A DNA stretch of 63,727 nt. It comes from a virus. Taxonomy: Duplodnaviria > Caudoviricetes. The DNA is taken from the IMG/VR virus record IMGVR_UViG_3300033153_006754, positions 1-63,727 of that record; one strand, given 5' to 3'. Below the pieces are notes generated by a model. It was not told where the DNA came from. It did no database searches and saw only the letters and a list, made by a program, of their open reading frames with translations. Positions 22,026-55,083 of this stretch are shown here, in pieces. Position 1 is the first letter of the stretch, and every line of letters starts with the position of its first letter. Made by a program: the position numbers and the translations under genes.

Positions 22026-23408
22026 TTATGCAGCCGCCGTGGAGAGCCCGATCTGGATCCTGATCTCCTGGATTTCGAACGCCGGTACGATGGTGAGGTC
22101 CACGATGATTTGTCCGAGAACCCGCATCGTTGGCGTGCTAACCAGGGAGAACGCAAATCCTTCCAGAGCACCCCGTTTTTGGAGTCGTCCGAGTCCCTCG
22201 TCGATCGCGTTCTCGATGGCGCTACGGTTGGCCGCATTGTTGGGCTTCCCGATGAACGGCAGGGAGACGATGCGAACGGCATTGATGGACTCCTGTGTGA
22301 TCCGCATGGTGGTCAGACGTACGAAGTCCGACCGGTAATACTGGCTTATGTTGTGAGCGCCGGTCATTCCGGAAGCTACAACATACCCGTTGGGACGTGC
22401 CCAGAAGGCGACGTACCTGGCGCCGGCTAGGTCATTGACCTGCCGTGCCGAGAAGTTCCTCAGGGATTCGGCACCCCTGACGATCTGGTTAGTCGTGGAG
22501 ATTTCGGGTGGCAGTGCAGAGATGAGACCCGCGTAGGCCCCGTCTCCCGGACCGTTGTAGTACCCAATGACGGGGTTCAAACGGGCCGACGCCTCGTTAC
22601 GGAACTTGCACCATGAGGAGATGACGCTGATGTAGGCGCCGATGTCGATCGGGTTACCCTTGGCGTCGTTCCGGATGTTTGCCGCGTCCCAAGGAGGTGA
22701 GCCCGTAGGAACAACCTCATCAGTGGTGGCCAGGAAGGCATAGGTGTCAGGGACACCATTGCTTCCTGAATCCGTTACTCCGTCGAAGACGGTGAAGTCC
22801 GAGCCCTGTAGCAACGACGTGTCAAATGCTACCAGAGCCGTAACGTGTGCGTTCTGCTCCGCAAGACTCGGTGTTCCCGAGGTGGCTACGGCAGCGGTCG
22901 GAGGTTCAACACCAATCACGCCCAGGCACGAGTTGTACTCCTTGGTTGCCTGGAAGCAGAAGTTGGCCAACTGGTAGCCATAGTTCTGCGTGCCTGCCAG
23001 ACCGCTCACATCAATCGAGGTGCCGCAAGGCACAACGATGTCCACATCGTGGTGCATGAGCAGTTCGTAGGCCCTGGCAAGGGCAGCGTACCGCTGTGCA
23101 GTAGTGATAGTGTCTTCATCGTACCGCGTACCGGATCCATCCGAAATGACGAACACTTCGACGAGCTTGGCGCCACCGGACATTGCCTCTTGAGCCTTCT
23201 TGGTAATCTCAGAGGGTCCGCCCGCCGCCTTGTCATAGTTCTGGAGGTCTTCGAATCGTGTAAGAACGATCGGGTCTTCCAGAGCTGGCGTCACGTTGTC
23301 CGTCACTCCGATGATGGTCACCTTGGGCCCTATGGCCGGCGGAGTGATCCTGGTACCGAAATCCACGACTTGGGCTCTTGTGCCTGGAATGTTTTCAAAG
23401 TCAGGCAT
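22026..23408 (-). CDS. Tail sheath protein
   Basis: 460 aa; N-terminal IPG and sheath C-terminal RLTTMRI..FIGKPNNAANR..IVPAFEIQEI. Confidence 0.9.
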   Translation of the reverse strand: MPDFENIPGTRAQVVDFGTRITPPAIGPKVTIIGVTDNVTPALEDPIVLTRFEDLQNYDKAAGGPSEITKKAQEAMSGGAKLVEVFVISDGSGTRYDEDTITTAQRYAALARAYELLMHHDVDIVVPCGTSIDVSGLAGTQNYGYQLANFCFQATKEYNSCLGVIGVEPPTAAVATSGTPSLAEQNAHVTALVAFDTSLLQGSDFTVFDGVTDSGSNGVPDTYAFLATTDEVVPTGSPPWDAANIRNDAKGNPIDIGAYISVISSWCKFRNEASARLNPVIGYYNGPGDGAYAGLISALPPEISTTNQIVRGAESLRNFSARQVNDLAGARYVAFWARPNGYVVASGMTGAHNISQYYRSDFVRLTTMRITQESINAVRIVSLPFIGKPNNAANRSAIENAIDEGLGRLQKRGALEGFAFSLVSTPTMRVLGQIIVDLTIVPAFEIQEIRIQIGLSTAAA

Positions 23409-27452: not shown

Positions 27453-28844
27453 CTAGATGCCAGATACGAACCCGGTCGGAAGTGCTCCCGTGCCCATCTG
27501 CCACTGCAGGGACAGGTTGTCCTCCCAGTCGTAGTTCTTGGCGATCCTGACGTTCTTGGCCTGGATCACGGCCTCGCCCTGGTTGTCCAGCGCAAGGGCG
27601 TACCTTTCCCGGATCTTCGTCGACCTGATGTCACGGCGCGGGTCGTCCCACGATTCCGTGACAGGGTCTTCGTCAACCACGAGGATTCCGAGCTCGTTCC
27701 TGTCGGCCATGATGATGTCTGTCAGAGCGTTCGTTCCATCGAAATAGATGAACGGGGACACGACTACCGCCAATGGCGCGGGGAAGAGAGACGGAACCGG
27801 AGTCATCATTGAGGACTGAGGATCCAGGGTCTGGCCCGGAGTGCCCTCGAGTCCCTGTGATGGCCCCATGTTGACCCCACCAGCGTTCCCGAGTGGGCCC
27901 TGCCCTGGCTGTCCCTGATGGGACTGGAAGAGCTGGCCGTTGTTCATGAACCCGAAGTTGCGCATCGTGCCATCGCGGGCAAAGATGAGCCAACCCATGG
28001 GGTTCATCAGGAGGACGTTGGGGATGAAGCCGACGTTCAAGAGGTCAGCGTACATCACGAAGAGGTCATCCAGGGTGATGGTCTTGTTGAGCAGACCGTC
28101 GATGTGCCGTCCCGTGGTTGCCCCGTGAAGGGATCCGGACGGTGACGCGTTATCGAACGCGATACGGCCTTCGGAGTTGATCAGGTTGAAGATTTTGACT
28201 TCCTTGTGACGAGCGAGTGCACGGCTTGCGGCCTGCAGGTGCATCGTCATGACGTCGAACATGGAGTACCTGATCATTTCGTCGGTGATACGGACCTTGA
28301 GACCGGATTTCCCGATCTTTGCAGTCACGTAACCAGCGAATTCCATGCTCTGTTCCGGATACTCGCCCCCAGGCGGAATGTCTTCGGCCCACATCCCTCC
28401 ACCAGCTGCAGGAAACGTGATCGTCTCCCCAGCAGAGAAGTTGATGCGGCGCATCAAAGTCGTTCCGATGAGAACGGGCTCGGCGGCCTCACGCACGATC
28501 CGGGTGATGACTTTGGGCAGCAGAATGACTGCAGAGGATGTTTCGATAGCATCCTTCAGCCCTGCGCCTTCCATCTTCTGTGCGTTCTCGTCCAGGACCT
28601 GGCAAAGCTTGTCATAGCCTACCCGGTGCGAGTCACGTTCGTGACCCTCCTGGTACTGATAACGCTCCTCCGGATCGAGCCACCCGTTGTTACGCCAGAC
28701 CATGTCGGTCAATGCCAACTGGTCTTCGACGCTGGGGCCACCGCTGCCGAGGGTCTTGGGATCTACCCCAAGCTCCTCTAGCCTGGAATCGACAAGCTCA
28801 CGGATTGACTTGTCGAGGCTTTCGGCTACGGTTCCTTGTGGCAT
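27453..28844 (-). CDS. Major capsid protein (HK97-like)
   Basis: 463 aa; LLPKVITRIVREAAEP, AEDIPPGGEYPE, KSGLKVRITDEMI, DIRSTKIRERY; canonical position; RBS GGAGG. Confidence 0.9.
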   Translation of the reverse strand: MPQGTVAESLDKSIRELVDSRLEELGVDPKTLGSGGPSVEDQLALTDMVWRNNGWLDPEERYQYQEGHERDSHRVGYDKLCQVLDENAQKMEGAGLKDAIETSSAVILLPKVITRIVREAAEPVLIGTTLMRRINFSAGETITFPAAGGGMWAEDIPPGGEYPEQSMEFAGYVTAKIGKSGLKVRITDEMIRYSMFDVMTMHLQAASRALARHKEVKIFNLINSEGRIAFDNASPSGSLHGATTGRHIDGLLNKTITLDDLFVMYADLLNVGFIPNVLLMNPMGWLIFARDGTMRNFGFMNNGQLFQSHQGQPGQGPLGNAGGVNMGPSQGLEGTPGQTLDPQSSMMTPVPSLFPAPLAVVVSPFIYFDGTNALTDIIMADRNELGILVVDEDPVTESWDDPRRDIRSTKIRERYALALDNQGEAVIQAKNVRIAKNYDWEDNLSLQWQMGTGALPTGFVSGI

Positions 28845-44739: not shown

Positions 44740-44981
44740 AGCAACCGCCCACTTGGTGAGATAATGGTACCTGCTTCAGCATCGAACTTGAACTTGACAA
44801 GCTCGAGGTCGTGCTTACATAACTTCAGGGCGCACCTGAAGTAGTCACAGTCTTCCTTGTCCTTGAAGTAGTCGATCTGACGAAACCTGGTCTCCATGCC
44901 TGGGACCTCATGCTCCACCTCAAGTACGAACTCCACGTCGGTGAGAGCGGGGCCCCAGTCAAGATCAGCTTTTGTTGTCAA
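44700..44981 (-). CDS. Hypothetical protein
   Basis: 93 aa; overlaps both neighbours. Confidence 0.45.
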   Translation of the reverse strand: MTTKADLDWGPALTDVEFVLEVEHEVPGMETRFRQIDYFKDKEDCDYFRCALKLCKHDLELVKFKFDAEAGTIISPSGRLLWPRKNPKKNPKT

Positions 44982-45330
44982 GACCGAGCTCCTTCAGCTT
45001 GGCATCCATAAGCGCCTTGAGGCCAGCTGCCTCGAGATCCATGCCAGTGTTCTTCAAGGTCTTGCGTACGATGGCCCTGGCGTTCTCAACACCTGAGGTA
45101 TCCACCTTGATCTGGTTGAGGGCGCTCGTGGCATGCCCCAGGAGATCGTCGGTCTGCTTGCCGGCTTTTGCCAGATCAGCGGCGAGGCCCTTGAAGTTGC
45201 CGGCCTTGACCTTCTGGATGATGCCCCAGACAGTCATGCCCAGAGCTGTAACTGAGGCAATGATGCCAATGATGAGGTAGATGTTCTGAAGAGCAGTTGA
45301 TGCTTCGAGAATCATGGTGTCCTCCGTCAA
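44965..45330 (-). CDS. Holin-like single-TM protein
   Basis: N-terminal IYLIIGIIASVTALGMTVWGII followed by charged helical tail. Confidence 0.5.
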   Translation of the reverse strand: MTEDTMILEASTALQNIYLIIGIIASVTALGMTVWGIIQKVKAGNFKGLAADLAKAGKQTDDLLGHATSALNQIKVDTSGVENARAIVRKTLKNTGMDLEAAGLKALMDAKLKELGLDNKS

Positions 45331-45720: not shown

Positions 45721-45748
45721 ATGGTACACGGGCTGTGTGAGATGTCAA
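45721..45748 (-). promoter_or_regulatory. Sigma70-like promoter
   Basis: TTGACA-N16-TACCAT. Confidence 0.6.
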
Positions 45749-45820
45749 GCCCCCGGCCGGCATCGAACCAGCGACCTACGGTTTACAAAACCGTCGCTCT
45801 CCCAACTGAGCTACGGAGGC
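45748..45820 (-). tRNA. tRNA-Thr(TGT)
   Basis: Cloverleaf, loop TT-TGT-AA, no CCA. Confidence 0.9.
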
Positions 45821-45823
45821 ATA

Positions 45824-45897
45824 TGGTGGGGCTGGAAGGAATTGAACCCTCGACATTGAGGTTCGTAGCCTCACGTCCCGAGTCCACGGGCAACCCC
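45824..45897 (-). tRNA. tRNA-Arg(ACG), atypical D-arm
   Basis: Loop CT-ACG-AA, CCA. Confidence 0.8.
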
Positions 45898-45901
45898 GAT
45901 C

Positions 45902-45977
45902 TGGTACGCCCGGAGGGATTCGAACCCCCAACAACCGGTTTAGAAAGCCGGTACCCATCCAATTGGGACTCGAGCGC
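45902..45977 (-). tRNA. tRNA-Arg(TCT)
   Basis: Loop TT-TCT-AA, CCA. Confidence 0.88.
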
Positions 45978-46053
45978 TGGTATCCCCGGAAGGACTCGAA
46001 CCTTCATTCCAGGATTAGGAATCCTGTGTCCTGTCCGTTTGGACGACGGAGAC
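45978..46053 (-). tRNA. tRNA-Arg(CCT)
   Basis: Loop TT-CCT-AA, CCA. Confidence 0.9.
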
Positions 46054-46129
46054 TGGCACTGCGAGAAGGACTCGAACCTTCAACCGCCAGGTTCGGAACC
46101 TGGTGCTCTATCCGTTGAGCTACCGCAGT
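46054..46129 (-). tRNA. tRNA-Arg(CCG)
   Basis: Loop TT-CCG-AA, CCA. Confidence 0.9.
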
Positions 46130-46200
46130 TGGCAGGCCGTCGAGGTGTCGATCCCCGCTGGCGGGGGTTGGAGTCCCACCTGATCGCCGGATCACAGCCT
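46130..46200 (-). tRNA. tRNA-Trp(CCA), truncated D-arm
   Basis: AGG..CCT-G-CCA acceptor, loop CT-CCA-AC, T-loop ATCGACA. Confidence 0.75.
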
Positions 46201-46203
46201 ACA

Positions 46204-46275
46204 TAGATCTCCGAGGAGTCGAACCCACAACCTACTGGCTCAAAACCAGCCGTGCTACCATTACACCAGAGATCC
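46204..46275 (-). tRNA. tRNA-Gln(TTG), weak T-stem
   Basis: Loop TT-TTG-AG; T-stem GTGGG/CCTCG mismatched; no CCA. Confidence 0.65.
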
Positions 46276-46351
46276 TGGTAGGGGTGGAAGGGTTCGAACC
46301 TTCGACCTCTTGAGTCAGAGTCAAGCGTTCTACCAGTTGAACTACACCCCT
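46276..46351 (-). tRNA. tRNA-Gln(CTG)
   Basis: Loop CT-CTG-AC, CCA. Confidence 0.9.
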
Positions 46352-46355
46352 ATTT

Positions 46356-46425
46356 GCCGGCGTTCTGCCAGTTAAACTATGCCAAGGTTTCCCTCGGCAG
46401 TCGGGTTCGAACCGACACTTCCGGC
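46356..46425 (-). ncRNA. Circularly permuted tRNA mimic (YrlA-like T/acceptor/D module)
   Basis: GCCGG-AAGT-GTCGG TTCGAAC CCGAC-TGCCGAGG GAAA CCTTGGCA-TA-GTTT AACTGGCA GAAC-G-CCGGC. Confidence 0.8.
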
Positions 46426-46427
46426 GC

Positions 46428-46506
46428 TGGTCGGGCCAGGAGGATTCGAACCTCCGGTCTCCTGCTCCCGAAGCAGGCGGCAACGGCCAAGCTTGCCCAT
46501 GGCCCG
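46428..46506 (-). tRNA. tRNA-Pro(CGG)
   Basis: Loop TT-CGG-GA, CCA. Confidence 0.9.
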
Positions 46507-46584
46507 TGGTCGGGCGAGGAGGATTCGAACCTCCGATTTCCGGTCCCCCAGACCGGCGTCCACTCCAAACTGGACCGCCGCCCG
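46507..46584 (-). tRNA. tRNA-Pro(GGG)
   Basis: Loop CT-GGG-GG, CCA. Confidence 0.9.
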
Positions 46585-46588
46585 ATAA

Positions 46589-46667
46589 TGGTCGGGGTGA
46601 CTGGATTCGAACCAGCGAATCTCCTGCTCCCAAAGCAGGCGCCCTGGCCAGGCTGGGCTACACCCCG
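46589..46667 (-). tRNA. tRNA-Pro(TGG)
   Basis: Loop TT-TGG-GA, CCA. Confidence 0.9.
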
Positions 46668-46669
46668 TT

Positions 46670-46745
46670 TGGCTCCCCAGGTGGGGTTCGAACCCACAAC
46701 CTCCCGGTTAACGGCCGGGCGCTCTTCCACATGAGCTTCCGAGGA
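46670..46745 (-). tRNA. tRNA-Asn(GTT), C33
   Basis: Loop CC-GTT-AA, CCA. Confidence 0.88.
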
Positions 46746-46749
46746 TCAC

Positions 46750-46823
46750 TGGAGCCACCGGGTGGAATCGAACCACCATTTCATCCTTACCAAGGACGTG
46801 TTCTGCCGTTTAACTACGGCGGC
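46750..46823 (-). tRNA. tRNA-Thr(GGT)
   Basis: Loop TT-GGT-AA, CCA. Confidence 0.9.
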
Positions 46824-46826
46824 TTA

Positions 46827-46890
46827 TGGAGCGGGGACTGAAGCCGGTGCCAGCCCCAGAGATTAAGTCCCAGGATCGAGGGAGCCCCGC
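46827..46890 (-). ncRNA. tRNA-like element with Gly-type acceptor and CCA but no normal D/T arms
   Basis: GCGGGG...CCCCGC-T-CCA, 64 nt, central CT-TAA-TC loop. Confidence 0.55.
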
Positions 46891-46964
46891 TGGAGCCATC
46901 GGCCAGAATCGAACTGGCGTCTGCTGAGTACGAAACAGCTATTCTGCCCCTGAACTACGATGAC
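46891..46964 (-). tRNA. tRNA-Thr(CGT)
   Basis: Loop TT-CGT-AC, CCA. Confidence 0.88.
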
Positions 46965-46974
46965 AGTAGGAAGG

Positions 46975-47061
46975 TGGCGGAAGACGTAGGAGTCGAACCT
47001 AATGCCTCTCGACACGATCCGGTTAGCAACCGGTCCCCAGTCCACACCGAGTTCATCTTCC
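46975..47061 (-). tRNA. tRNA-Ser(GCT)
   Basis: Loop TT-GCT-AA, long variable arm, G-CCA. Confidence 0.85.
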
Positions 47062-47138
47062 TGGAGACCCCGGTCGGACTCGAACCGACTAAGGTAGGGT
47101 TTGCAATCCTACGCCTCGTCCACTTCGGCATCAGGGCC
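47062..47138 (-). tRNA. tRNA-Cys(GCA)
   Basis: Loop TT-GCA-AA, U73, CCA. Confidence 0.88.
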
Positions 47139-47228
47139 TGGCGGTGGGCGGAGGAGTCGAACCCCTGTCATATTTCAGACCGCACGGCTTTCGAGGCCGC
47201 CCCCAGTCCAACACCGGGGTCACCCACC
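47139..47228 (-). tRNA. tRNA-Ser(CGA)
   Basis: Loop CT-CGA-AA, long variable arm, G-CCA. Confidence 0.85.
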
Positions 47229-47236
47229 ATAACAAA

Positions 47237-47323
47237 CGGCAGGGCTGGGATTCGAACCCAGGAGACCTCTCAGTCTACACGCTTTCCAAGCGAGCGCTTT
47301 CAGCCGGACTCAGCCACCCTGCC
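47237..47323 (-). tRNA. tRNA-Ser(GGA)
   Basis: Loop TT-GGA-AA, long variable arm, no CCA. Confidence 0.88.
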
Positions 47324-47530
47324 AGTAGGGTAATAGGTAGGAGAGGCCTCGTCTGGCCTCCCTTCTCCGAGTGCCTTATGATCGGCAACACGAAGAGGGG
47401 AAACTTCGCGCATTGGGCCAGCGCCGGGTCGTTCGACCCAGCTGCTGTCTCCTTCGTTGGAGTGTTGTGCGAAGCATCGAGAACCTCTTATTGCGTACCG
47501 GCGCTAAAGGCCGGCGATGAATATATTCTC

Positions 47531-47558
47531 AGTGTACAGATGCCGAGAACGAAGTCAA
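47531..47558 (-). promoter_or_regulatory. Sigma70-like promoter
   Basis: TTGACT-N16-TACACT. Confidence 0.7.
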
Positions 47559-47566
47559 GTACTTTC

Positions 47567-47643
47567 TGAGGTGAACGGAGGGATTCGAACCCTCTCCTCG
47601 AGAGTCACAATCTCGTATGCTGACCACTTACACCACATTCAAC
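47567..47643 (-). tRNA. tRNA-His(GTG)
   Basis: Loop TT-GTG-AC, G-1:C73, ends TCA. Confidence 0.88.
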
Positions 47644-47718
47644 TGGTGACCCAGGCAGGAGTCGAACCTGCGTTAAGGAGTTATAAGCTCCCCGTTCTAG
47701 CCGTTGAACTACTGGGCC
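47644..47718 (-). tRNA. tRNA-Ile(TAT)
   Basis: Loop CT-TAT-AA, A73, CCA. Confidence 0.88.
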
Positions 47719-47761
47719 GCAACGTTCAGCTGCGGCTTGATATTCGTTCGTGTTCCATCTA

Positions 47762-47833
47762 TAGCGGGGAGGGGAATCGAACCCCCGAGACCAAGGTTAT
47801 GAGCCCCGGCTAAGCACCAACGCTTGCCCCGCG
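47762..47833 (-). tRNA. Initiator-type tRNA-Met(CAT), atypical
   Basis: CGCGGGG start with C1:U72 mismatch, loop CT-CAT-AA, compact D-arm. Confidence 0.8.
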
Positions 47834-47840
47834 TCACTGA

Positions 47841-47913
47841 TGTCCTCGCTGGGATTCGAACCCAGACTCGACTGTATTTAAGACAGCTGGCTTTGCCGTT
47901 AGCCTACGAGGAC
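47841..47913 (-). tRNA. tRNA with TAA (Leu) anticodon and short variable loop
   Basis: Loop CT-TAA-AT, 5-nt variable region, A73. Confidence 0.82.
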
Positions 47914-47926
47914 AGCTGATTCCTGC

Positions 47927-48010
47927 TGGTACCGGAGACAGGATTCGAACCTGCAAGCCTTTCGGCGGTGCGTTCTGAGCGCACTGCGTTTACCATTTCA
48001 CCACTCCGGC
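47927..48010 (-). tRNA. tRNA-Leu(CAG)
   Basis: Loop CT-CAG-AA, long variable arm, CCA. Confidence 0.9.
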
Positions 48011-48095
48011 TGGTGCCCAGGGTGGGAGTCGAACCCACAAGCCGCAAGGCACATGGCTCTCAACCATGCGTGTTTACCTGTTTCACCACCTGGAC
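48011..48095 (-). tRNA. tRNA-Leu(GAG)
   Basis: Loop TT-GAG-AG, long variable arm, CCA. Confidence 0.9.
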
Positions 48096-48099
48096 ATTC

Positions 48100-48184
48100 T
48101 GGTACGGAAGGTGAGATTCGAACTCACACGCCTTGCGGCACAGAGGTTTGAGCTCTGCGCGTCTACCTGTTCCGCCACTCCCGC
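48100..48184 (-). tRNA. tRNA-Leu(CAA)
   Basis: Loop CT-CAA-AC, long variable arm, CCA. Confidence 0.9.
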
Positions 48185-48187
48185 TAC

Positions 48188-48259
48188 TACGGCCACGGAG
48201 AGTTGAACTCCGGTCTCCGGGGTGAAAACCCGGTATCCTTGCCACTGGACGACAGCCGC
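48188..48259 (-). tRNA. tRNA-Glu(TTC)
   Basis: Loop TT-TTC-AC, no CCA. Confidence 0.85.
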
Positions 48260-48262
48260 TCA

Positions 48263-48334
48263 TACCCCTACAGAGAGTCGAACTCTGGTCTGCTGGATGA
48301 GAACCAGCTATCCTTGCCACTAGACGATAGGGGC
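48263..48334 (-). tRNA. tRNA-Glu(CTC)
   Basis: Loop TT-CTC-AT, no CCA. Confidence 0.88.
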
Positions 48335-48412
48335 TGGTAGGCCCGGTCGGACTCGAACCGACATGACCCCTGCGTGTAAAACAGGTGCTTGGCCAAGTTA
48401 AGCTACGGACCT
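48335..48412 (-). tRNA. tRNA-Val(TAC)
   Basis: Loop TT-TAC-AC, CCA. Confidence 0.9.
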
Positions 48413-48477
48413 ATGCGGAAGCGTCACCGGACTACGCACGTGTGGAAGCACGGAACGTAGCACCCGGCTCAGCTTCC

Positions 48478-48553
48478 TGGCGGGACTCACGGGGATCGAA
48501 CCCGCAACCTCCGGATCGACAGTCCGGCGCTCTTCCAATTGAGCTTCAGTCCC
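48478..48553 (-). tRNA. tRNA-Asp(GTC)
   Basis: Loop CT-GTC-GA, G-CCA. Confidence 0.9.
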
Positions 48554-48558
48554 GTTTC

Positions 48559-48634
48559 TGGTGGATAACGGTGGGACTCGAACCCACAACTCCTGGGTGC
48601 AAACCAAGTGTGTTCCCAATTACACCACGCTCCC
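48559..48634 (-). tRNA. tRNA-Ala(TGC) with bulged acceptor
   Basis: Loop TT-TGC-AC, G3:U70, extra A in 3' acceptor strand, CCA. Confidence 0.8.
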
Positions 48635-48711
48635 TGGTGGACCCTGTCAGAGTCGAACTGACCGCCTCCTGCGTGCAAAACAGGCGCTCTACCCAGATGA
48701 GCTAAGGGCCC
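48635..48711 (-). tRNA. tRNA-Ala(TGC)
   Basis: Loop TT-TGC-AC, G3:U70, CCA. Confidence 0.9.
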
Positions 48712-48722
48712 ATATGTAGTAT

Positions 48723-48797
48723 TGGTAGCCCCGGAGGGAGTTGAACCCTTCGTTTGCGGTTTATCAGACCGCTGTTCTGCCGTTGAACTACGGAGCT
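48723..48797 (-). tRNA. tRNA-Ile(GAT)
   Basis: Loop CT-GAT-AA, CCA. Confidence 0.9.
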
Positions 48798-49021
48798 TCT
48801 TAGTTGAGGTCTCGAGGAAGTTTGGAGAAGACTTGCGGGAGACCTCAGCGTCGGTTACGCCGCGATCTCCATAATATCCAGAACGGCGGCGCCCACGACG
48901 ATGTCGTGTTCTAGGTGAAGTCGTATGTGTAACTTCTGCCGCTGCACTTCTGGTCTCCAGTTATAGGGGACGCCGGCACGGGGTCTTTACAGCCCGTACC
49001 GACGTCAGGTTCGATCCGTAT

Positions 49022-49309
49022 TTAGTGTACGGATGCCAGCACAAAAGTCAAGTTCAATCTGCCAACTTTTACTGTCTCGCCGTCAATCACCTTCCGGAAC
49101 AGCCGTGGCTTGTTCTTCTTCACTTGGCTGGTGCTGGGGAAGAGGCCCAGCTCAACTAGAGCTCGAGCTAAGAATGACTCGTCTGTTCGCACAATCATAT
49201 CTGCCTTCGGTAAGGTGTTGTTGTTAAGGATCCCCTTCACGAGCATGATCGCTTCGCGTACGGGGAGCTCCCATGATGCAACTACTGCTGGCTGTAAGAT
49301 CTCAATCAT
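49022..49309 (-). CDS. Small protein with S4-like RNA-binding motif
   Basis: 95 aa; LARALVELGLFPSTSQVKK..TVKVGR resembles the TyrRS C-terminal S4 domain. Confidence 0.55.
   Translation of the reverse strand: MIEILQPAVVASWELPVREAIMLVKGILNNNTLPKADMIVRTDESFLARALVELGLFPSTSQVKKNKPRLFRKVIDGETVKVGRLNLTFVLASVH
49024..49051 (-). promoter_or_regulatory. Sigma70-like promoter
   Basis: TTGACT-N16-TACACT. Confidence 0.7.
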
Positions 49310-49386
49310 TGGTGTGGGTACAGGGATTCGAACCCTGACTGCCAGCTTGGAAGACTGGCGTGCTGGCCGTTGAACACTACACCCAC
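49310..49386 (-). tRNA. tRNA-Gly(TCC) with U2:A71 and A73
   Basis: Loop CT-TCC-AA; GTGGGTG/TACCCAC-A-CCA. Confidence 0.85.
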
Positions 49387-49410
49387 AAATTCAAGGGACT
49401 GCATTAGATC

Positions 49411-49620
49411 TCATTCAACCACTTCCAGTATAGCCTCGAGCCCTGATCCTTCTGGGCTGAGCTTGACTAAAGGCCTGGACCTTATGACCTCAGCAATCTC
49501 ATCAGTGATATCGGGACCACCGATCTCACAAGTACCGTCCGGTCCTGTCTTGGCCGTGATGAAACCGTCCTTGAGCTTGATGAAGAACGTTGCCATTGGA
49601 GTGCCTATGGAAACTTTCAT
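49411..49620 (-). CDS. Hypothetical 69-aa protein inside tRNA array
   Basis: ORF filling the gap between tRNA blocks. Confidence 0.5.
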   Translation of the reverse strand: MKVSIGTPMATFFIKLKDGFITAKTGPDGTCEIGGPDITDEIAEVIRSRPLVKLSPEGSGLEAILEVVE

Positions 49621-49669
49621 TAGAGGCCCTCAAAAAGGTTATTGATCTATTGGACATTATATCAACTAA

Positions 49670-49743
49670 TGCCCCCGGTAGGATTCGAACCTACATCTAT
49701 CCGGTTAAAAGCCGGATGTTCTACTCCATTGAACTACAGAGGC
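49670..49743 (-). tRNA. tRNA-Lys(TTT)
   Basis: Loop CT-TTT-AA, no CCA. Confidence 0.9.
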
Positions 49744-49745
49744 TC

Positions 49746-49820
49746 TGGTGGGCCGAAAGAGATTTGAACTCTTATCTAACGGATTAAGAATCCGTCGCTC
49801 TACCATTGAGCTATCGACCC
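49746..49820 (-). tRNA. tRNA-Lys(CTT)
   Basis: Loop TT-CTT-AA, CCA. Confidence 0.9.
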
Positions 49821-49824
49821 ATGC

Positions 49825-49898
49825 TGATGCGGGCAGATGGAGTCGAACCACCGTCGACTGTGATCAGCAGTCTGCTCTACCACTGAGCTATACCTCAC
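49825..49898 (-). tRNA. Atypical tRNA with GAT anticodon (possible pseudo-tRNA)
   Basis: Loop CT-GAT-CA (C37), 3-nt variable loop, bulged acceptor, ends TCA. Confidence 0.6.
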
Positions 49899-49982
49899 TG
49901 GTGCGCCGGGTTGGAGTCGAACCAACACAGTACTAGACGGGTGGGTTACAGCCACTTGAGCTCACCAATGCTCAGCCGACAC
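49899..49982 (-). tRNA. tRNA-Tyr(GTA)
   Basis: Loop CT-GTA-AC, long variable arm, CCA. Confidence 0.88.
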
Positions 49983-50056
49983 TGGTGGGCCGAGATGGAA
50001 TCGAACCATCATTACCGCATCTTCAGTGCGGCGCTCTACCACTGAGCTACCGACCC
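49983..50056 (-). tRNA. tRNA-Phe(GAA)
   Basis: Loop CT-GAA-GA, CCA. Confidence 0.9.
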
Positions 50057-50059
50057 AGA

Positions 50060-50130
50060 AGCGACTGGAGAGAATCGAACTCTCGTGTCCAGCTTGGGAA
50101 GCTGACGCTTTACCACTAAGCTACAATCGC
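50060..50130 (-). tRNA. tRNA-Gly(CCC)
   Basis: Loop TT-CCC-AA, canonical GCG..CGC-U, no CCA. Confidence 0.9.
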
Positions 50131-50136
50131 GTTAGT

Positions 50137-50210
50137 TGGTGTGGCTGGCGAGAATCGAACTCGCATTGCCTGCGTGGCGGGCAGGTATCTTACCGTTGGA
50201 TCACAACCAC
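50137..50210 (-). tRNA. tRNA-Gly(GCC) with U2:A71, A73 and C33
   Basis: Loop CC-GCC-AC; GTGGTTG/CAGCCAC-A-CCA. Confidence 0.83.
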
Positions 50211-50316
50211 AGACAGGAGAGGTTCATCCGCAATATCGGAACGAACCTCGGGCGGTAAATCGCCCTCGGAGCGGATAGGTGGGCTTTCGTTTATATCTGT
50301 CTGTGGCCATGAACTT

Positions 50317-50344
50317 AGTATACGTATCAGGAGGGCGGAGTCAA
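50317..50344 (-). promoter_or_regulatory. Sigma70-like promoter heading the tRNA array
   Basis: TTGACT-N16-TATACT. Confidence 0.75.
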
Positions 50345-50348
50345 GTCC

Positions 50349-50930
50349 TTAGGATAAAAGACTCAACTCCATGGAGCAGTGCTCATCGGGACCCAGCTTA
50401 TCAAGATCTTCAACGCACTGAACCTTGAACCACTCGTGGACGTATGCGATCTTCCAACAGCCATTGGCAGCAATGAGGTTGAACACAGTATCACCGAAGT
50501 CATTGGCTGAGCGAGTGTGTATGTAGAGGCGGGACGTCATCCTGCTAAGGTCAGTGAGTATGGAGTCCAGGTCATGATGCTCGAGGTGTTGCAGCACCAG
50601 AGATACCAGAACTGAGTCAAAGGTCATAGTCCGGACCGCTTCCCAGTTGCTCTCCAGCACAACGTTCGAAGGTATTGAACCCAGCCCCTCTTCCACCAGA
50701 CTCAGCATGCCTTCAAAGTCGTACCCAACGACCTCATCTGCTCTAGCCGCAAGCTCCTTCAGGTTCCGGCCTACTCCACACCCGAAGTCCAGCACACGAT
50801 TGCCGAAGGACGCACGTTGCATCAATCCAATGTCCGCCGGCAATGGTCCTTCTCTAGATCCCCATCCTGATAGAACGCGCTCCCTAGCTGACTTCAAGTC
50901 TCCAGGATCACGCCACTTGTCATATCTCAT
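50349..50930 (-). CDS. Class I SAM-dependent methyltransferase
   Basis: 193 aa; RVLDFGCGVGR, FDSV..VLQHL. Confidence 0.88.
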   Translation of the reverse strand: MRYDKWRDPGDLKSARERVLSGWGSREGPLPADIGLMQRASFGNRVLDFGCGVGRNLKELAARADEVVGYDFEGMLSLVEEGLGSIPSNVVLESNWEAVRTMTFDSVLVSLVLQHLEHHDLDSILTDLSRMTSRLYIHTRSANDFGDTVFNLIAANGCWKIAYVHEWFKVQCVEDLDKLGPDEHCSMELSLLS

Positions 50931-51184
50931 GGTCTGTACTCGTACCCAGATAGCTTGGAATCACGCTCAACCACCAGCGTCTCTTCGCAGTATTCGCCAC
51001 CAGGTGGGACCTCTTCGGCGTGCTTCATGAGGAACTCCTCACTGATCTTGATCTGTATGCCACGCTTTGACTTGCCGGGGATGGTGCTCTTCACCCAGAT
51101 CCTGACAACGTCCCGGCTTCGATCGAACTCTGCGTCCAGCTTCAGTTGCGGTGTCAGTTGAATGCTGCCTGGGCCGATGTTCAT
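50927..51184 (-). CDS. 85-aa protein containing two reordered MCP-like segments
   Basis: KRGIQIKISEEFL and AEEVPPGGEYCEET match MCP KSGLKVRITDEMI and AEDIPPGGEYPEQS. Confidence 0.7.
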   Translation of the reverse strand: MNIGPGSIQLTPQLKLDAEFDRSRDVVRIWVKSTIPGKSKRGIQIKISEEFLMKHAEEVPPGGEYCEETLVVERDSKLSGYEYRP

Positions 51185-51244
51185 TTGAGTGCCCTTCCAA
51201 AAGTATGGAGTGGAGGTTCTTTACCTCAGTGATGTGGTAGAGCT

Positions 51245-52189
51245 TCATGGTCGCACTGCAAAGACGTCTATCTGGAACGGGCGGTTATCAGGCAGATCAC
51301 CAATGGCCTGCATCTCATTGTCACCAGTGATAGCTAAGGGTTTGTATCCAAGATCCCTGAGCATGTTCATGTACTGGTTGGGACTGCAGTTTGACACCTT
51401 ACGCAGCTGGTCTCGGTGGACCTCGGTAATGATGGGCGGGTACTTGTGGCGCTTGAGGAACTGTCGGCCACCTTCAATGACCAATGGCTCAGCGCCCTCA
51501 ACATCCATCTTGATGAAGCTGACTCCTTGACCCTGATCCTCAATCTGAAGAGCGTCGAGCGGATACACCTGAACGGTAGCGGCCGTGTGGTTCGGAGGTG
51601 GCTCTGTACCCAACTCCGCCAGATAGGCACCACCATGGTTGATGGTGTCCGGGGCGTAGATGAGGTTGAGCTTTGATTCCGAAGCACCGACCGCCTCGTT
51701 CAGGCAACAGACGTCACCCATGTCTGGATGGTCCCTACGCAGGTTCTCCCTGACCGTACGATCCAGGAGTGAGTAGACGTGAGGCATTGGCTCGTAGGAG
51801 AGCACAGTGCCTTTTGATCCAACCATCCTGGCCATCTTGATCGAGAAGTAACCAACGTTGGCTCCGATATCCAGTACGTGAGTTCCGGGCTGTATCCACT
51901 TCTTCATCAGGTTGAGGACGTGAGGCTCATACTTGCCCTGGAGGATCCCGCGACCAATGAACTGGTCGTTGAGGTCGATCCAGAACCGGTCCCCATCGGT
52001 ATCCTCAACCATGACGATACTGTTCCCAGCTTCCTTGCTCTTCTCCTTGAACTCAGTGGACGCCATCAGGGAGTCCCTCAGGGTCTTCATGTCGCCGCAT
52101 CCCATCTTCTCTTCCATCACGGCAGAGTTTTCGGGCATGCGTTCAAAGAGGACCTTGTAGGCCCAGATGACGTCTTGCTGAGTGAGCAT
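51245..52189 (-). CDS. FkbM-family methyltransferase
   Basis: 314 aa; LDIGANVGY, YEP, IKMDVEGAE; short N-terminal AYK.LF.R.PE helical domain. Confidence 0.9.
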   Translation of the reverse strand: MLTQQDVIWAYKVLFERMPENSAVMEEKMGCGDMKTLRDSLMASTEFKEKSKEAGNSIVMVEDTDGDRFWIDLNDQFIGRGILQGKYEPHVLNLMKKWIQPGTHVLDIGANVGYFSIKMARMVGSKGTVLSYEPMPHVYSLLDRTVRENLRRDHPDMGDVCCLNEAVGASESKLNLIYAPDTINHGGAYLAELGTEPPPNHTAATVQVYPLDALQIEDQGQGVSFIKMDVEGAEPLVIEGGRQFLKRHKYPPIITEVHRDQLRKVSNCSPNQYMNMLRDLGYKPLAITGDNEMQAIGDLPDNRPFQIDVFAVRP

Positions 52190-52923
52190 TATGATTCCAC
52201 CACTCGGACCATATGATGGTCTTCTTCAAGAGGCTCACCGGTGAGGGCCTCAATGACCTCCTTGGAGAAGGTGTACTCACCTTTCTTCAGGTTATACGTT
52301 TGGCCCTTATTGTGTTGGTACACTTTGTGGTAACCCCTGCCCTTGATCCACCCGACCACGTCTTCAGCATGGTAGGTGTAGTTGTCCTCAGTGGTGATGT
52401 CGTCGATTGAAACTCCGCCACCTCTCTGGATAATATCCACGTTCCGGATGACGAGCCAGGCGTCGACGCCGTACTCATCGATTGACTGGAGGACGATCCC
52501 GCCGAGCTTGATGGGGAGGTGGGGCCACATGCTCTCCTCATTGACGATGGAGAGGATGGTGCCGACATACCCACCAATGTTCCAGTCAGTGTTGCCCCAG
52601 GAGATGCCTTGGACGAAAGGAGCTGGGTTGATGATCCTGGGTTGGTCCCCGCGCTCTGGACTGACCAGGAGGGCCTCAGTGTCGACGCCACAGAAGGACC
52701 ATCTGGTGTGCTTGCCAGGAGGCTTCTCGAACTCCTGGTCCTCCTTGAGGTCCTTCCCCCAGTCGAAGGGCTTCTTGGTAACGATCTTGCTGCGCTCTGA
52801 CCTGAGCTTGTACAGAACTCTGGATGCGTCCTTGATGCGACGATTGACATCGTCCATCTTGGCCTTATTGTCTGGGTCGGCCGCTTCGGGGCCTCGGTCC
52901 GGGCTTGAAGGGTTCTCCGTCAT
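52189..52923 (-). CDS. Orphan tail-tube homolog lacking the long beta-hairpin
   Basis: Start at MTENPSS (RBS AGGAGG), 244 aa; 26/50 identity to the tube C-terminal segment. Confidence 0.78.
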   Translation of the reverse strand: MTENPSSPDRGPEAADPDNKAKMDDVNRRIKDASRVLYKLRSERSKIVTKKPFDWGKDLKEDQEFEKPPGKHTRWSFCGVDTEALLVSPERGDQPRIINPAPFVQGISWGNTDWNIGGYVGTILSIVNEESMWPHLPIKLGGIVLQSIDEYGVDAWLVIRNVDIIQRGGGVSIDDITTEDNYTYHAEDVVGWIKGRGYHKVYQHNKGQTYNLKKGEYTFSKEVIEALTGEPLEEDHHMVRVVES

Positions 52924-53089
52924 TGTACTTCCTCCTGAGTCGTTTGATCTCCTTCTCCAGTCCAGCGGACATAAGAGAAGTGAGCGTGACACTTTGGTCG
53001 TGCTCGTGATATTGCAGGAACGCTACTGCGGCCCTGGCCTCCGCTAGGAGAGCATCATCGACGTTATGTGTGGTTCGAACTTTTGACAT
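52865..53089 (-). CDS. Ribbon-helix-helix / ParB C-terminal-like DNA-binding protein
   Basis: 74 aa; TTHNVDDALLAEARAA..LEKEIKRLRRKYNDGEPF..GRP. Confidence 0.6.
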   Translation of the reverse strand: MSKVRTTHNVDDALLAEARAAVAFLQYHEHDQSVTLTSLMSAGLEKEIKRLRRKYNDGEPFKPGPRPRSGRPRQ

Positions 53090-53286
53090 AGTTCAACCTG
53101 TTCGTTGTTATTGAAGGCGATTGCTTCAGAGTATCCTCTGGGGCTCATGAGTATCGTGTTAGGCTGGAACTGCTGCTTGGTCAGCATATCGTACATACGA
53201 TCCAGGTCAGCAAGCTGCATGCTGGCAGACTTGTTCTGTCTCAGGGCCAGATCCACAACATGGTGTGTAAGAAACAAGGGGTTCAT
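53044..53286 (-). CDS. 80-aa MCP-fragment protein
   Basis: 13/30 identity to MCP ITLDDLFVMYADLLNVGFIPNVLLMNPMGW. Confidence 0.72.
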   Translation of the reverse strand: MNPLFLTHHVVDLALRQNKSASMQLADLDRMYDMLTKQQFQPNTILMSPRGYSEAIAFNNNEQVELCQKFEPHITSMMLS

Positions 53287-53534
53287 TAGTAGCCTGCAGC
53301 CTCTCTACCGACGTCGGTGCAGAACCACCCGTAGCCCATCCATTGTGGATCGTATATCCACTTAACCAGGCCGGCCTTCTTCATCCGTCTCAGGGTAGAC
53401 AGCACAAGTCTGGCTTTCCTTTGGAGCCTGCGCTTTCGGGCCCATGCGGTCCGAGCCAAGTGTCCAACACGAACTGGTGTTGCCTGCTTGGCCAAAGCTG
53501 TTAGCACAGTAAGGTCCTTGCCTTGTAACTTCAT
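53286..53534 (-). CDS. Basic winged-helix-like protein
   Basis: 82 aa; LRRMKKAGLVKW..GW.CTDVGR. Confidence 0.55.
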   Translation of the reverse strand: MKLQGKDLTVLTALAKQATPVRVGHLARTAWARKRRLQRKARLVLSTLRRMKKAGLVKWIYDPQWMGYGWFCTDVGREAAGY

Positions 53535-53743
53535 TCTCTCACACTCACAGATTCAGGAAACTTCGGTGTCAAGATCCCACTAGCCTTGATGTCGACCCTG
53601 GGATCGTTCCATTCCCCAGGTATGGCTCCAGTACCCATCTGCCATCTGATGCCGCTCACTGTGACATCCATTGGAGGCCCACCACAGCCATCGCAGCTGT
53701 TGAGACCGGAGTTGAACCTGCCACAGTATTTACATTGCCACAT
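53531..53743 (-). CDS. Zn-ribbon fused to MCP C-terminal fragments
   Basis: 70 aa; WQCKYC..CDGC then WQMGTGAIP and WNDPRVDIK. Confidence 0.75.
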   Translation of the reverse strand: MWQCKYCGRFNSGLNSCDGCGGPPMDVTVSGIRWQMGTGAIPGEWNDPRVDIKASGILTPKFPESVSVRE

Positions 53744-54051
53744 TAGAAGCCCTTGATATCAAATGTTGACTGATAGCTCCTGAGGCCCTTGCCTCTCATC
53801 CTCACAAGGATCTTACCGTCGTAGTCTGTGCACCAGTTCTTGAGATCGCCGAGCTTCCCATTGAATAGTGGGCGACCATGCTGGTTGCCGTCGTTGCACA
53901 CAAAGATACCAACTTGGGGATCAGTGGTGCATTCACCACCGCCATATATGTAGTCTTCAGAGCGAAGACTCCCCAGAACATGTGCCAGGCGTGCACCGCG
54001 GTTGGTTCCCTGGGAGAGTGTGAAGGCTGCTGTGTTCGGTATGTGATCCAT
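53743..54051 (-). CDS. Hypothetical protein, probably leaderless (MDHIPN..)
   Basis: ATG 7 nt after a TATACT -10; the same frame is open up to 54525. Confidence 0.55.
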   Translation of the reverse strand: MDHIPNTAAFTLSQGTNRGARLAHVLGSLRSEDYIYGGGECTTDPQVGIFVCNDGNQHGRPLFNGKLGDLKNWCTDYDGKILVRMRGKGLRSYQSTFDIKGF

Positions 54052-54058
54052 ACACAGG

Positions 54059-54086
54059 AGTATATGGAATAATAGCATAATGGCAA
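54059..54086 (-). promoter_or_regulatory. Sigma70-like promoter
   Basis: TTGCCA-N16-TATACT with AT-rich upstream sequence. Confidence 0.65.
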
Positions 54087-54532
54087 GTATTATTTTGAAG
54101 AATTCTTTAAATGACCCGGGCCCCGACTGAGGGGGCCCTTGGGGTCCTAACCATGCACCAATAGCATGTGGGCCCGCTTGCGAGGGCCCTGGATGAACAA
54201 ACCTGTTCACCTGTCCTCTACTTGGGTTGCATGTCTCAGGAAATCTGCTAAGCGAATCAAACAGGATTTCGGGTAGGGGCTTTGATGGCCACAAGGCTCG
54301 CACTTCACGCGCGTGGGCGCAACGAGCGTCCTTGTTGTCACGACGGCGCCGAACCCGTTCATCGGGATGCCACTTGTAATCGCGGTGGTGTCCGTCCCAG
54401 TCCCGCCAGGGCCATACAGTCCAGTGTGTAGGACGACTGTCATCAATCCAGACTGTGTTTGCTGCGGCGGAGTCAGTTGCCTGAGTCCAGTCTGTGCCGG
54501 AAGTGCGGTCGCAATCAACATCCATCAGGCTA

Positions 54533-54561
54533 ATATTACCTTGAAGATTTCAGGGAGTCAA
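54533..54561 (-). promoter_or_regulatory. Sigma70-like promoter
   Basis: TTGACT-N17-TAATAT; ATG 7 nt downstream. Confidence 0.55.
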
Positions 54562-54769
54562 GTAACCGCTTGAGATGATATATGTCTGTGTCGTTGATCT
54601 GCAGGTCAAACACCTCTCCACAACAATTGATGCACATCCGGTAGATGTTGACGTCGCCGTCATGCTCGATCTGCTCCGGCAGGTGCCCGACACACAGAAG
54701 ATCCTGAGTGCTCAGGTGATACTTGCAATCCGTATGTGGGCACCACGCCGGCCGTTTGTTCTTGCGCAC
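54536..54769 (-). CDS. Cys/His-rich small protein
   Basis: Probable GTG start just after the Tad1 stop; RPAWCPHTDC..C..H..C. Confidence 0.5.
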   Translation of the reverse strand: MRKNKRPAWCPHTDCKYHLSTQDLLCVGHLPEQIEHDGDVNIYRMCINCCGEVFDLQINDTDIYHLKRLLDSLKSSR

Positions 54770-54771
54770 TG

Positions 54772-55083
54772 TCAAGCCTTGTTGGTTCCTTCCACGCCAC
54801 GGTCCTGGCGACCCTTGGTACGGTCTTCCAGCCAGTGGATGGCTTCCTGGAACTTGGTGATGGCCAGTGCATTCTCCCTGCACTTGAACGGGCCCTTCTG
54901 GAAACCCTCGAGCCGGTCGATGAGCACCTGTGCCACCAACTCGATAGTGGTCCCGTTCTCGTCATGCTCCTTGATGGGCCCGCACTGGAACTTGATCTTG
55001 ATGTACTCCTCTTCGATGAAAGACATGGTGCCATCAAGAGACTCCTGTGCCTCCAGGTCCAATTTCTCCAGGTTCTCGCTCAT
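54772..55083 (-). CDS. tad1: Tad1/Acb2-family immune-signal sponge (anti-Thoeris/anti-CBASS)
   Basis: 103 aa; IKFQCGP..NG..IDRLEGFQKGPFKCRENALAITKFQEAIHWL..R..RGVEGT; RBS GGAG. Confidence 0.88.
   Translation of the reverse strand: MSENLEKLDLEAQESLDGTMSFIEEEYIKIKFQCGPIKEHDENGTTIELVAQVLIDRLEGFQKGPFKCRENALAITKFQEAIHWLEDRTKGRQDRGVEGTNKA

Follow-up and report, generated by a model that had tools for sequence, protein, structure and literature searches.

Peptide segments resembling the major capsid protein in small accessory genes beside a Tad1 homolog of a jumbo-phage fragment

The stretch of DNA considered here, the 63,727-base virus record IMGVR_UViG_3300033153_006754 (Duplodnaviria; Caudoviricetes), is called the window below. 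It is classed as linear, and its estimated completeness of 31% makes it a fragment of a jumbo phage of about 200 kb; nearly all of its genes, from 1 to 57 kb, are on the minus strand. The gene under study, gene A (53531..53743, minus), encodes P0002, a protein of 70 amino acids (aa) that consists of a zinc ribbon and a predicted-disordered half with peptides resembling the phage's own major capsid protein (MCP; P0001; 27453..28844, minus). Gene A is part of a tightly packed block of small accessory genes on the same strand (50.3-55.1 kb), in which a homolog of Thoeris anti-defence 1 (Tad1) lies 1 kb upstream of it. What is new here is that two neighbouring small genes, gene B (53044..53286, minus) and gene C (50927..51184, minus), appear from their sequences to carry MCP-like segments as well.

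The MCP is 463 aa long and has an HK97 fold (Pfam Phage_capsid_4, 6e-17); Bacillus phage 0305phi8-36 and Moorella phage MTATph1 have MCPs with 31-37% identity to it. Its AlphaFold2 (AF2) model has a mean predicted local distance difference test (pLDDT) value of 78, and the top Foldseek matches are the capsids of cyanophage A4 and HK97. The C-terminal tail, residues 446-463 (27456..27509, minus; LQWQMGTGALPTGFVSGI), is a coil after the helix 440-446, and the means of the 10-residue pLDDT blocks from residue 441 on are 59, 66, and 57. The MCP set used below has 120 members, the window's own protein and 119 homologs that are 43-78% identical. The last 25 residues are an extension specific to this clade, as alignments to distant isolate MCPs stop at residues 438-442. 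The pattern W..G[TS]G..P occurs within the last 30 residues of 66 of 124 MCP-length proteins; the commonest tail form is WQAGTGALP (12 cases), and the exact form WQMGTGALP is found only in the MCP of this phage. Residues 399-411 (WDDPRRDIRSTKI; 27612..27650, minus) form the turn of a long hairpin of the P-domain (AF2 strands 386-401 and 406-419), and W399, D400, D401, P402, R403, R404, D405, and I406 are invariant in four close MCPs. The domain names (E-loop, A-domain, P-domain) are assigned by analogy with the HK97 topology. The A-domain region also contains an insertion of about 47 residues, rich in Gly and Pro (residues 306-352, about 27789..27929), which has pLDDT values below 50, varies among close relatives, and, judging from the model, may be a surface loop.

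The tail motif of the MCP recurs in gene A. Residues 32-42 of P0002, IRWQMGTGAIP (53618..53650, minus), align without gaps to LQWQMGTGALP at MCP residues 446-456, with 8 of 11 residues identical and a score of 54. When 3000 shuffles of P0002 were scored against the MCP, none reached this value (maximum 51). In the six frames of the window, WQMGTGA is found only at this position (53624-53644) and in the MCP gene (27483-27503, residues 448-454). A second piece, residues 44-57 (EWNDPRVDIKASGI; 53573..53614, minus), resembles the turn of the P-domain hairpin and is called the P-loop-like piece: WNDPRVDIKASGI and WDDPRRDIRSTKI (MCP 399-411) have 7 of 13 residues in common in an ungapped segment that scores 43, a value reached by 15 of the 3000 shuffles. 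W.DPR, too, occurs in the six frames of the window only in gene A (53597-53611) and in the MCP gene (27636-27650, residues 399-403). The summed score of the two segments, 97, was reached by no shuffle (maximum 76). Both peptides had been noticed in a first-pass annotation of the sequence and are indeed present, as is VSGI before the motif (residues 29-32; 53648..53659, minus), a 4-mer identical to the last four residues of the MCP (27456-27467); a second SGI copy is found in ASGI at residues 54-57. The same annotation read the three pieces as standing in reverse order. The pieces are there, but residues 32-57 may instead be a roughly collinear copy of the MCP tail, made of WQMGTGAIP, a 12-residue insertion, and SGI. 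In this collinear arrangement, which finds no support in the profile alignment, the distant homolog P0125, described below, would have an insertion of 5 residues ahead of TGY.

At the DNA level, the first piece is identical to the MCP gene at 22 of 33 nucleotides (nt) and at 4 of 11 third positions, and the same codon is used for two of the six identical residues that have degenerate codons. The second piece is identical at 24 of 42 nt, and blastn-short detected no wider DNA similarity around the pieces. Because of the third-position divergence and the absence of a wider DNA match, the similarity between gene A and the MCP is one of protein only. The annotation was correct that the DNA differs mostly at third positions; as a sign of selection, this divergence is insufficient by itself, since the piece may derive from the MCP gene of another phage. 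Short matches at E<=0.15 are frequent in the window (31 of 72 long open reading frames (ORFs) used as queries had at least one, many of them in noncoding frames), so that the case rests on the combined and profile-based tests.

Homologs of gene A are few. An exhaustive phmmer search of 1.84 billion representatives returned four proteins at E<=0.001: P0004, which is the same protein called from an internal start; P0125; a repeat protein that was judged unrelated; and P0127, which looks eukaryotic, has repeated W-x-C-x2-C fingers, and aligns to the ribbon alone (residues 2-25). P0125 (62 aa; E 5e-11) is 59% identical to P0002 over residues 1-44 and is the sole distant homolog; its recovery is the best evidence that the full-length gene A protein is real. 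A word-indexed protein search returned only P0004 and P0003, which is 99% identical to P0002. No family member was found by tblastn against isolate phages (noise at E>=2), by viral-contig scans with P0002, P0125, and gene C, by a JGI metagenome scan with the alignment of the small proteins, or in the related genomes G001-G003, where gene A had no match at E<=10. Gene A overlaps its neighbours at both ends: its start shares TAATG with the stop of the upstream ORF, and its stop shares ATGA with the start of the downstream gene.

The alignment of P0002, P0003, and P0125 defines the zinc ribbon as residues 1-23 (53675..53743, minus) with the pattern W-x-C-x2-C-x3-N-x5-C-x2-C. C4, C7, C17, and C20 are invariant in the three proteins and form two CxxC knuckles, as in small zinc-ribbon proteins with RanBP2-like spacing, which bears out the CxxC-CxxC scaffold proposed earlier. 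The Pfam family Zn_ribbon_3 (PF13248) matched P0125 below the threshold (E 0.01; 15.7 bits, with the cutoff at 27) but not P0002; gene A had no other Pfam or PHROG match and no PDB sequence match at E<=10, and its matches in the ESM Atlas were all generic look-alikes of zinc ribbons, below 0.9. The AF2 model of gene A has a pLDDT of 45.8, with 52-57 over the ribbon and values below 50 for residues 21-50. Such low values fit a small knuckle with a disordered region behind it, an arrangement that is typical of proteins presenting a short linear motif. Since model confidence is low at the motif in both proteins, the motif is probably accessible in gene A as well as in the MCP. An MCP hidden Markov model (HMM) matched gene A with E 5.7 over 11 residues, far from a full HK97-fold domain; gene A is not an MCP, and two short segments are what it has in common with one.

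The conserved positions within the family are unevenly distributed. Of the 23 ribbon positions, 18 are invariant across P0002, P0003, and P0125, compared with none of 10 in the linker; residues 34-44 (W Q. G T G A. P. E) have 8 invariant positions of 11, and the remainder of the protein has 6 of 26. P0125, with its different linker, has the sequence WQIGTGALP at the motif. A profile was built from the tails of the 119 other MCPs, with the window's own protein left out, and was searched against 2244 sequences, comprising P0125 and all six-frame ORFs of the window and of the relative G002. P0125 (E 1.8e-4) and gene A (E 1.3e-3) ranked directly behind the two MCPs, and the next sequence, at 0.45, was noise. 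Alignment of the small-protein family to the MCP family with hhalign gave E 1.5e-4 and a probability of 52 over 13 columns. These alignments single out the motif W-Q-x-G-T-G-A-L/I-P, common to the tails of the whole MCP family, as the unit that is shared, and selection has apparently kept it; the observation that the tail motif of this MCP clade is the sole conserved feature of the zinc-ribbon family beyond the ribbon is robust. Together with the shuffles, the profile tests argue that the resemblance between gene A and the MCP is not due to chance. With respect to the tail motif, therefore, the earlier proposal that the peptide is under selection (8 of 11 invariant positions against none of 10 in the linker) appears to hold, and the conserved unit is WQxGTGA[LI]P, which is present in P0125. 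The phage's own MCP ranks first of 120 for the tail piece, and the only residues specific to that MCP beyond the family consensus are M36 and VSGI, which makes the evidence for co-variation thin. The P-loop-like piece is closest to the MCP P0019 (SWNDPRRDIKSTKL), and the phage's own MCP ranks 15th of 120.

Gene B (80 aa) has a segment resembling the A-domain, which aligns to MCP residues 254-303 with an 8-residue gap, and gene C (85 aa) has a segment, AEEVPPGGEYCEETL, resembling the tip of the E-loop (MCP 153-167). When the MCP was compared with the 1236 six-frame ORFs of the window, the top three non-self matches all fell in real genes between 50.9 and 53.8 kb. With the HMM of 120 MCPs on the same ORFs, gene B was the best non-self match (E 3.2e-5) and gene C had E 0.74; a weak match that looked like an extension of the series (HMM positions 291-330, E 3) lay in a noncoding frame and was dropped. 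Against the MCP profile, hhalign gave a probability of 91.6 and E 8e-7 for gene B, and a probability of 38-42 and E 3e-4 for gene C. In a comparison of the accessory proteins, the hhalign scores were 45.1 for gene B (probability 92), 31.0 for gene C (42), and 29.7 for gene A (39), and the remaining 11 proteins scored 11.7-21.3 with probabilities <=1.5, which is noise. Sixty shuffles per gene (180 in total) did not exceed 23.7, with maxima of 18.3 for gene B and 21.9 for gene C.

Further support for a specific relation to the MCP came from blastp with composition correction, in which 14 accessory proteins were compared with 28 structural proteins; the MCP accounts for about 2% of the residues of the latter. 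After one true paralog, the four best matches were all to the MCP: gene C with E 7.7e-4, gene B with 1e-3, and gene A with 3e-3 and 0.036, with noise from 0.038 on. The match of gene B spans 34-50 of about 450 profile positions, and gene B thus appears to be a fragment-sized relative of the MCP and not a capsid protein. Genes B and C have codon usage like that of bona fide genes, with log-likelihood ratios (LLRs) of 0.25 and 0.32 per codon in a range of 0.2-0.47.

The relative G002 served as a control. It is syntenic with the window, 57.6 kb long, and about 43% complete by CheckV, with an MCP 75% identical to that of the window and a colinear virion module. When its MCP was compared with its own ORFs, the best non-self matches (E 0.13 and 1.2) were in frames that are not genes, and the MCP HMM found nothing. 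In the window, MCP-like segments are enriched in three genes of a single accessory block, beside a counter-defence gene.

In the AF2 secondary structure of the MCP, the gene C segment corresponds to the loop 148-168 between two E-loop strands, the gene B segment to the A-domain helix 258-271, strand 277-280, and helices 282-300, and the gene A pieces to the turn of the P-domain hairpin (386-401, 406-419) and the C-tail. All of these segments are among the most conserved motifs of the MCP, and the corresponding elements are subunit contacts in HK97-type capsids. The pieces differ in which MCP lineage each resembles most. Along the coding strand of 50927..53743, they correspond to MCP positions 446, 399, 255, and 153, the reverse of their order in the MCP, with each piece itself in forward orientation; with four pieces, the reversed order may also be a coincidence (1 in 24). 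A simple collinear MCP pseudogene was rejected, as the pieces run from the C- to the N-terminus and are separated by unrelated genes.

The Tad1 homolog (113 aa; 54772..55113, minus) matched PDB 8kbb, 'Thoeris anti-defense 1', over residues 32-112 with E 5.3e-20 in phmmer, four further distinct chains named Tad1 (8kbh_D, 8kbg_D, 8kbh_I, and 8kbe_A) at about 2e-13, and 7uav_A, deposited as 'ABC transporter ATPase', at 1.9e-13. It also matched phrog_2428 (6e-28) and, just below the cutoff of 27 bits, the Pfam family Acb2_Tad1_hairpin (2.5e-5, 24.8 bits). Homology to the solved Tad1 proteins is clear at the level of sequence, and the gene marks the block at 50.3-55.1 kb as a counter-defence region.

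The block also contains an accessory paralog (267 aa; 52189..52992, minus; matching phrog_9206) of two virion genes that follow the tail sheath gene (22026..23408; phrog_16991), which lies with the MCP gene in the virion module. It is 48% identical over 60 aa to the product of one of them, 21293..22000 (E 4e-15). Both virion genes (21293..22000 and 20459..21235, minus) occupy the position of a tail-tube gene after the sheath gene, yet PHROG 9206 is labelled 'major head protein'; neither they nor the paralogs had a Pfam or PDB sequence match. Two paralogs of this kind are present in G002 (49713..50360 and 53311..54126, minus), beside genes for winged helix-turn-helix (wHTH) and ribbon-helix-helix (RHH) proteins. 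In the window, a winged-helix-like gene (82 aa; 53286..53534, minus) and an RHH-like gene (74 aa; 52865..53089, minus; Pfam CB_ParB_C 2.6e-4, sub-threshold) flank the MCP-like genes. The former has a counterpart in G002 by tblastn (45% over 38 aa, E 3.6e-5); for the latter, one is apparent when a G002 frame is read, with no tblastn match at E<=1e-3. The RHH ORF overlaps both of its neighbours, which leaves the starts uncertain.

On either side of gene C are an FkbM-family methyltransferase gene (51245..52189, minus; Pfam 3e-17) and a gene resembling S-adenosylmethionine-dependent methyltransferases (50349..50930, minus; phrog_4752 2.5e-7), the start of which overlaps the stop of gene C (ATGA). 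Codon usage is poor (-0.17 and -0.02) in two long ORFs near Tad1, 54536..54883 and 53743..54525 (minus), whose translations look odd at the N-terminus, and their true starts are probably much further downstream; the former is Cys-rich and overlaps Tad1 by 112 nt. An array of 35 transfer RNA (tRNA) genes, all on the minus strand (45748..50210), separates the virion module from the accessory block and includes several isoacceptors each for Arg, Leu, Pro, Thr, and Gly. In G002, which was not scanned for tRNA genes, the accessory genes begin right after the homolog of 44965..45330 (aligned stretch). An Rfam scan of 50-56 kb found nothing besides tRNAs.

The reading that we favour, tentatively and at somewhat less than even confidence, is that these genes mimic interface motifs of the MCP and thereby intercept a host factor that recognises the free MCP. 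The tail motif would work as a short linear motif by filling the site that the normal partner of the MCP tail uses to bind it, and the segments of genes B and C and the P-loop-like piece would do likewise for other subunit-contact surfaces. We take the likeliest target to be a factor of the host that detects the unassembled MCP, probably a sensor of the immune system, because of the Tad1 neighbour and because sensors have been reported to bind assembly interfaces of the MCP. On this view, the small proteins would act as competitors or decoys that do not activate the sensor and would be produced together with other counter-defence proteins. This proposal is supported by the non-chance match, the ranks in the tail-profile search, the pattern of conservation, the identity confined to the protein level, the enrichment for the MCP, the clean result with G002, and the Tad1 context. 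A more specific version appears doubtful: a self-mimic block in which small proteins that show contact motifs of the phage's own MCP (C-tail, P-loop, A-domain, and E-loop tip), together with tail-module paralogs and a Tad1 sponge, compete without activation for bacterial pattern-recognition sensors, such as Avs-like or CapRel-like proteins, of unassembled structural proteins. A complex prediction of MCP residues 95-445 with gene A scored 0.00 and counts neither way.

Several observations weigh against mimicry. The codon usage of gene A is ambiguous (LLR -0.04 per codon, compared with -0.03 to -0.24 in the other five frames), the database gene call P0004 starts at the internal M25 and gives a protein of 46 aa without the ribbon, and only two distinct members of the family were found. 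What holds for the tail motif does not hold for the rest of the peptide: the P-loop-like piece (WNDPRVDIK) and VSGI are absent from P0125, and P0003 reads WNDHR for WNDPR (P to H), so that the interpretation given in the first-pass annotation is, overall, partly supported. Gene B is nearer to distant MCP lineages, its own MCP ranking 83rd of 120, and neither gene B nor gene C has homologs elsewhere in the collections searched. G002, the sole syntenic relative long enough for the comparison, has neither a gene A homolog nor MCP-like segments in its 57.6 kb. The adjacency of Tad1 is circumstantial. Furthermore, an extra copy of a sensed epitope could trigger the sensor instead of blocking it; the Gol peptide and the Lit protease are a case in which a copy of an epitope triggers.

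Some of these observations fit an origin as recombination debris, in which the pieces are leftovers of an old extra MCP copy, or MCP fragments patched in by illegitimate recombination, and the proteins may be functional, though not by their resemblance to the MCP. This origin is possible, if on balance unlikely. The pieces are short and stand at unequal distances from the phage's own MCP (ranks 1, 15, and 83 of 120 for the tail, the P-loop-like piece, and gene B, the last of which also fits old debris), some are lost or changed in P0125 and P0003, G002 has none of them, and there is no DNA similarity; moreover, the virion-gene paralog in the same block indicates that structural-gene material does get copied there. 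Debris would not, however, explain why the motif is kept between P0002 and P0125 while the linker is not, with both proteins matching the MCP-tail profile, or why the four top matches are all to the MCP and not to the four giant proteins that form most of the structural residues. The ORFs are also intact and translationally coupled, genes B and C have good codon usage, and the pieces coincide with the most conserved motifs of the MCP. The proposal that the segments are silent cassettes, archived as donors for gene conversion of the MCP gene in order to vary sensed surfaces, draws on the several partial segments that cover surface or contact elements; it is very improbable, given DNA identities of 22/33 and 24/42 nt without flanking homology and the position of the pieces inside intact, coupled ORFs.

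Alternatively, the tail copy could bind a putative docking site of the MCP tail on the lattice or on a partner such as a decoration protein or the protease, and so recruit the zinc-ribbon protein onto or into the capsid or regulate assembly; taken together, this chain of proposals is unlikely. The motif is a conserved and probably flexible terminal extension specific to the MCP clade, the subunit-contact elements in genes B and C could have affinity for the MCP, and HK97-fold shells do bind short targeting peptides, as the title of PDB 7s2t ('EncA bound to EncB targeting peptide') indicates. On the other hand, gene A lies among accessory genes, 25 kb away from the head genes, and recruitment has no obvious need for fragments of the A-domain or E-loop. 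Independent origin of a low-complexity motif rich in G, T, A, and P in a zinc-ribbon protein, by chance or convergence, is considerably less probable than docking. The conserved core in common is only about 9 residues long, short matches are frequent in the window, and the full MCP HMM gives gene A an E of 5.7; against this stand the absence of any shuffle among 3000 that reached the score, a second segment in the same ORF, two more genes nearby, the match of both family members to the tail profile, and the clean control with G002.

Several known systems come close to what is proposed for gene A. Short-linear-motif mimicry by viral accessory proteins is a general principle, and gene A resembles it in having a conserved motif of about 9 residues, disordered and with variable flanks, on a small folded anchor domain, and copied from another protein; the difference is that gene A copies the capsid protein of the virus itself and not a host protein. 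The targeting sequence of the T4 internal proteins and the C-terminus of the HK97 protease are peptides that target the capsid. As with the encapsulin cargo-loading peptides (by the title of the 7s2t entry), the short peptide of gene A could, by analogy, bind an HK97-fold shell, but capsid-targeting and cargo-loading peptides do not copy the terminus of the shell protein, and the motif of gene A is internal and not terminal.

As far as the sources covered go, the sensors Avs7, Avs8, and Avs10 bind conserved MCP surfaces, including assembly interfaces, and CapRelSJ46 senses both the MCP and a small unrelated phage protein, Gp54 (review PMC13728456). A sensor of the MCP can thus also be engaged by a small protein of the phage; those small proteins, however, activate the sensor and are not MCP-like in sequence, and an inhibitory mimic of the MCP was not found described in the same sources. 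The Tad1 and Acb2 sponges are counter-defence genes, and a Tad1 homolog is in the same block as genes A, B, and C; yet Tad1 sequesters signalling nucleotides, and the three genes have no sequence in common with it. In the part of the literature covered by a limited search, neither a phage case of such motif mimicry of the virus's own capsid protein nor phage accessory proteins built from capsid fragments were found described.

A large number of bacterial immune sensors that recognise conserved structural proteins of phages are now coming to light, and the ways in which phages escape them, beyond point mutation, are largely unknown. If true, trigger mimicry would be a new class of anti-defence strategy, and the block of genes with capsid motifs beside a bona fide anti-Thoeris gene is a concrete, testable candidate for escape of this kind. 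Alternatively, the block may be a sign of a code of peptides by which proteins dock onto HK97-fold capsids. On a cautious reading, fragments of the capsid gene are preferentially retained in the accessory genes of this phage, and a conserved C-terminal tail motif has been defined in a large clade of capsid proteins of uncultured jumbo phages.

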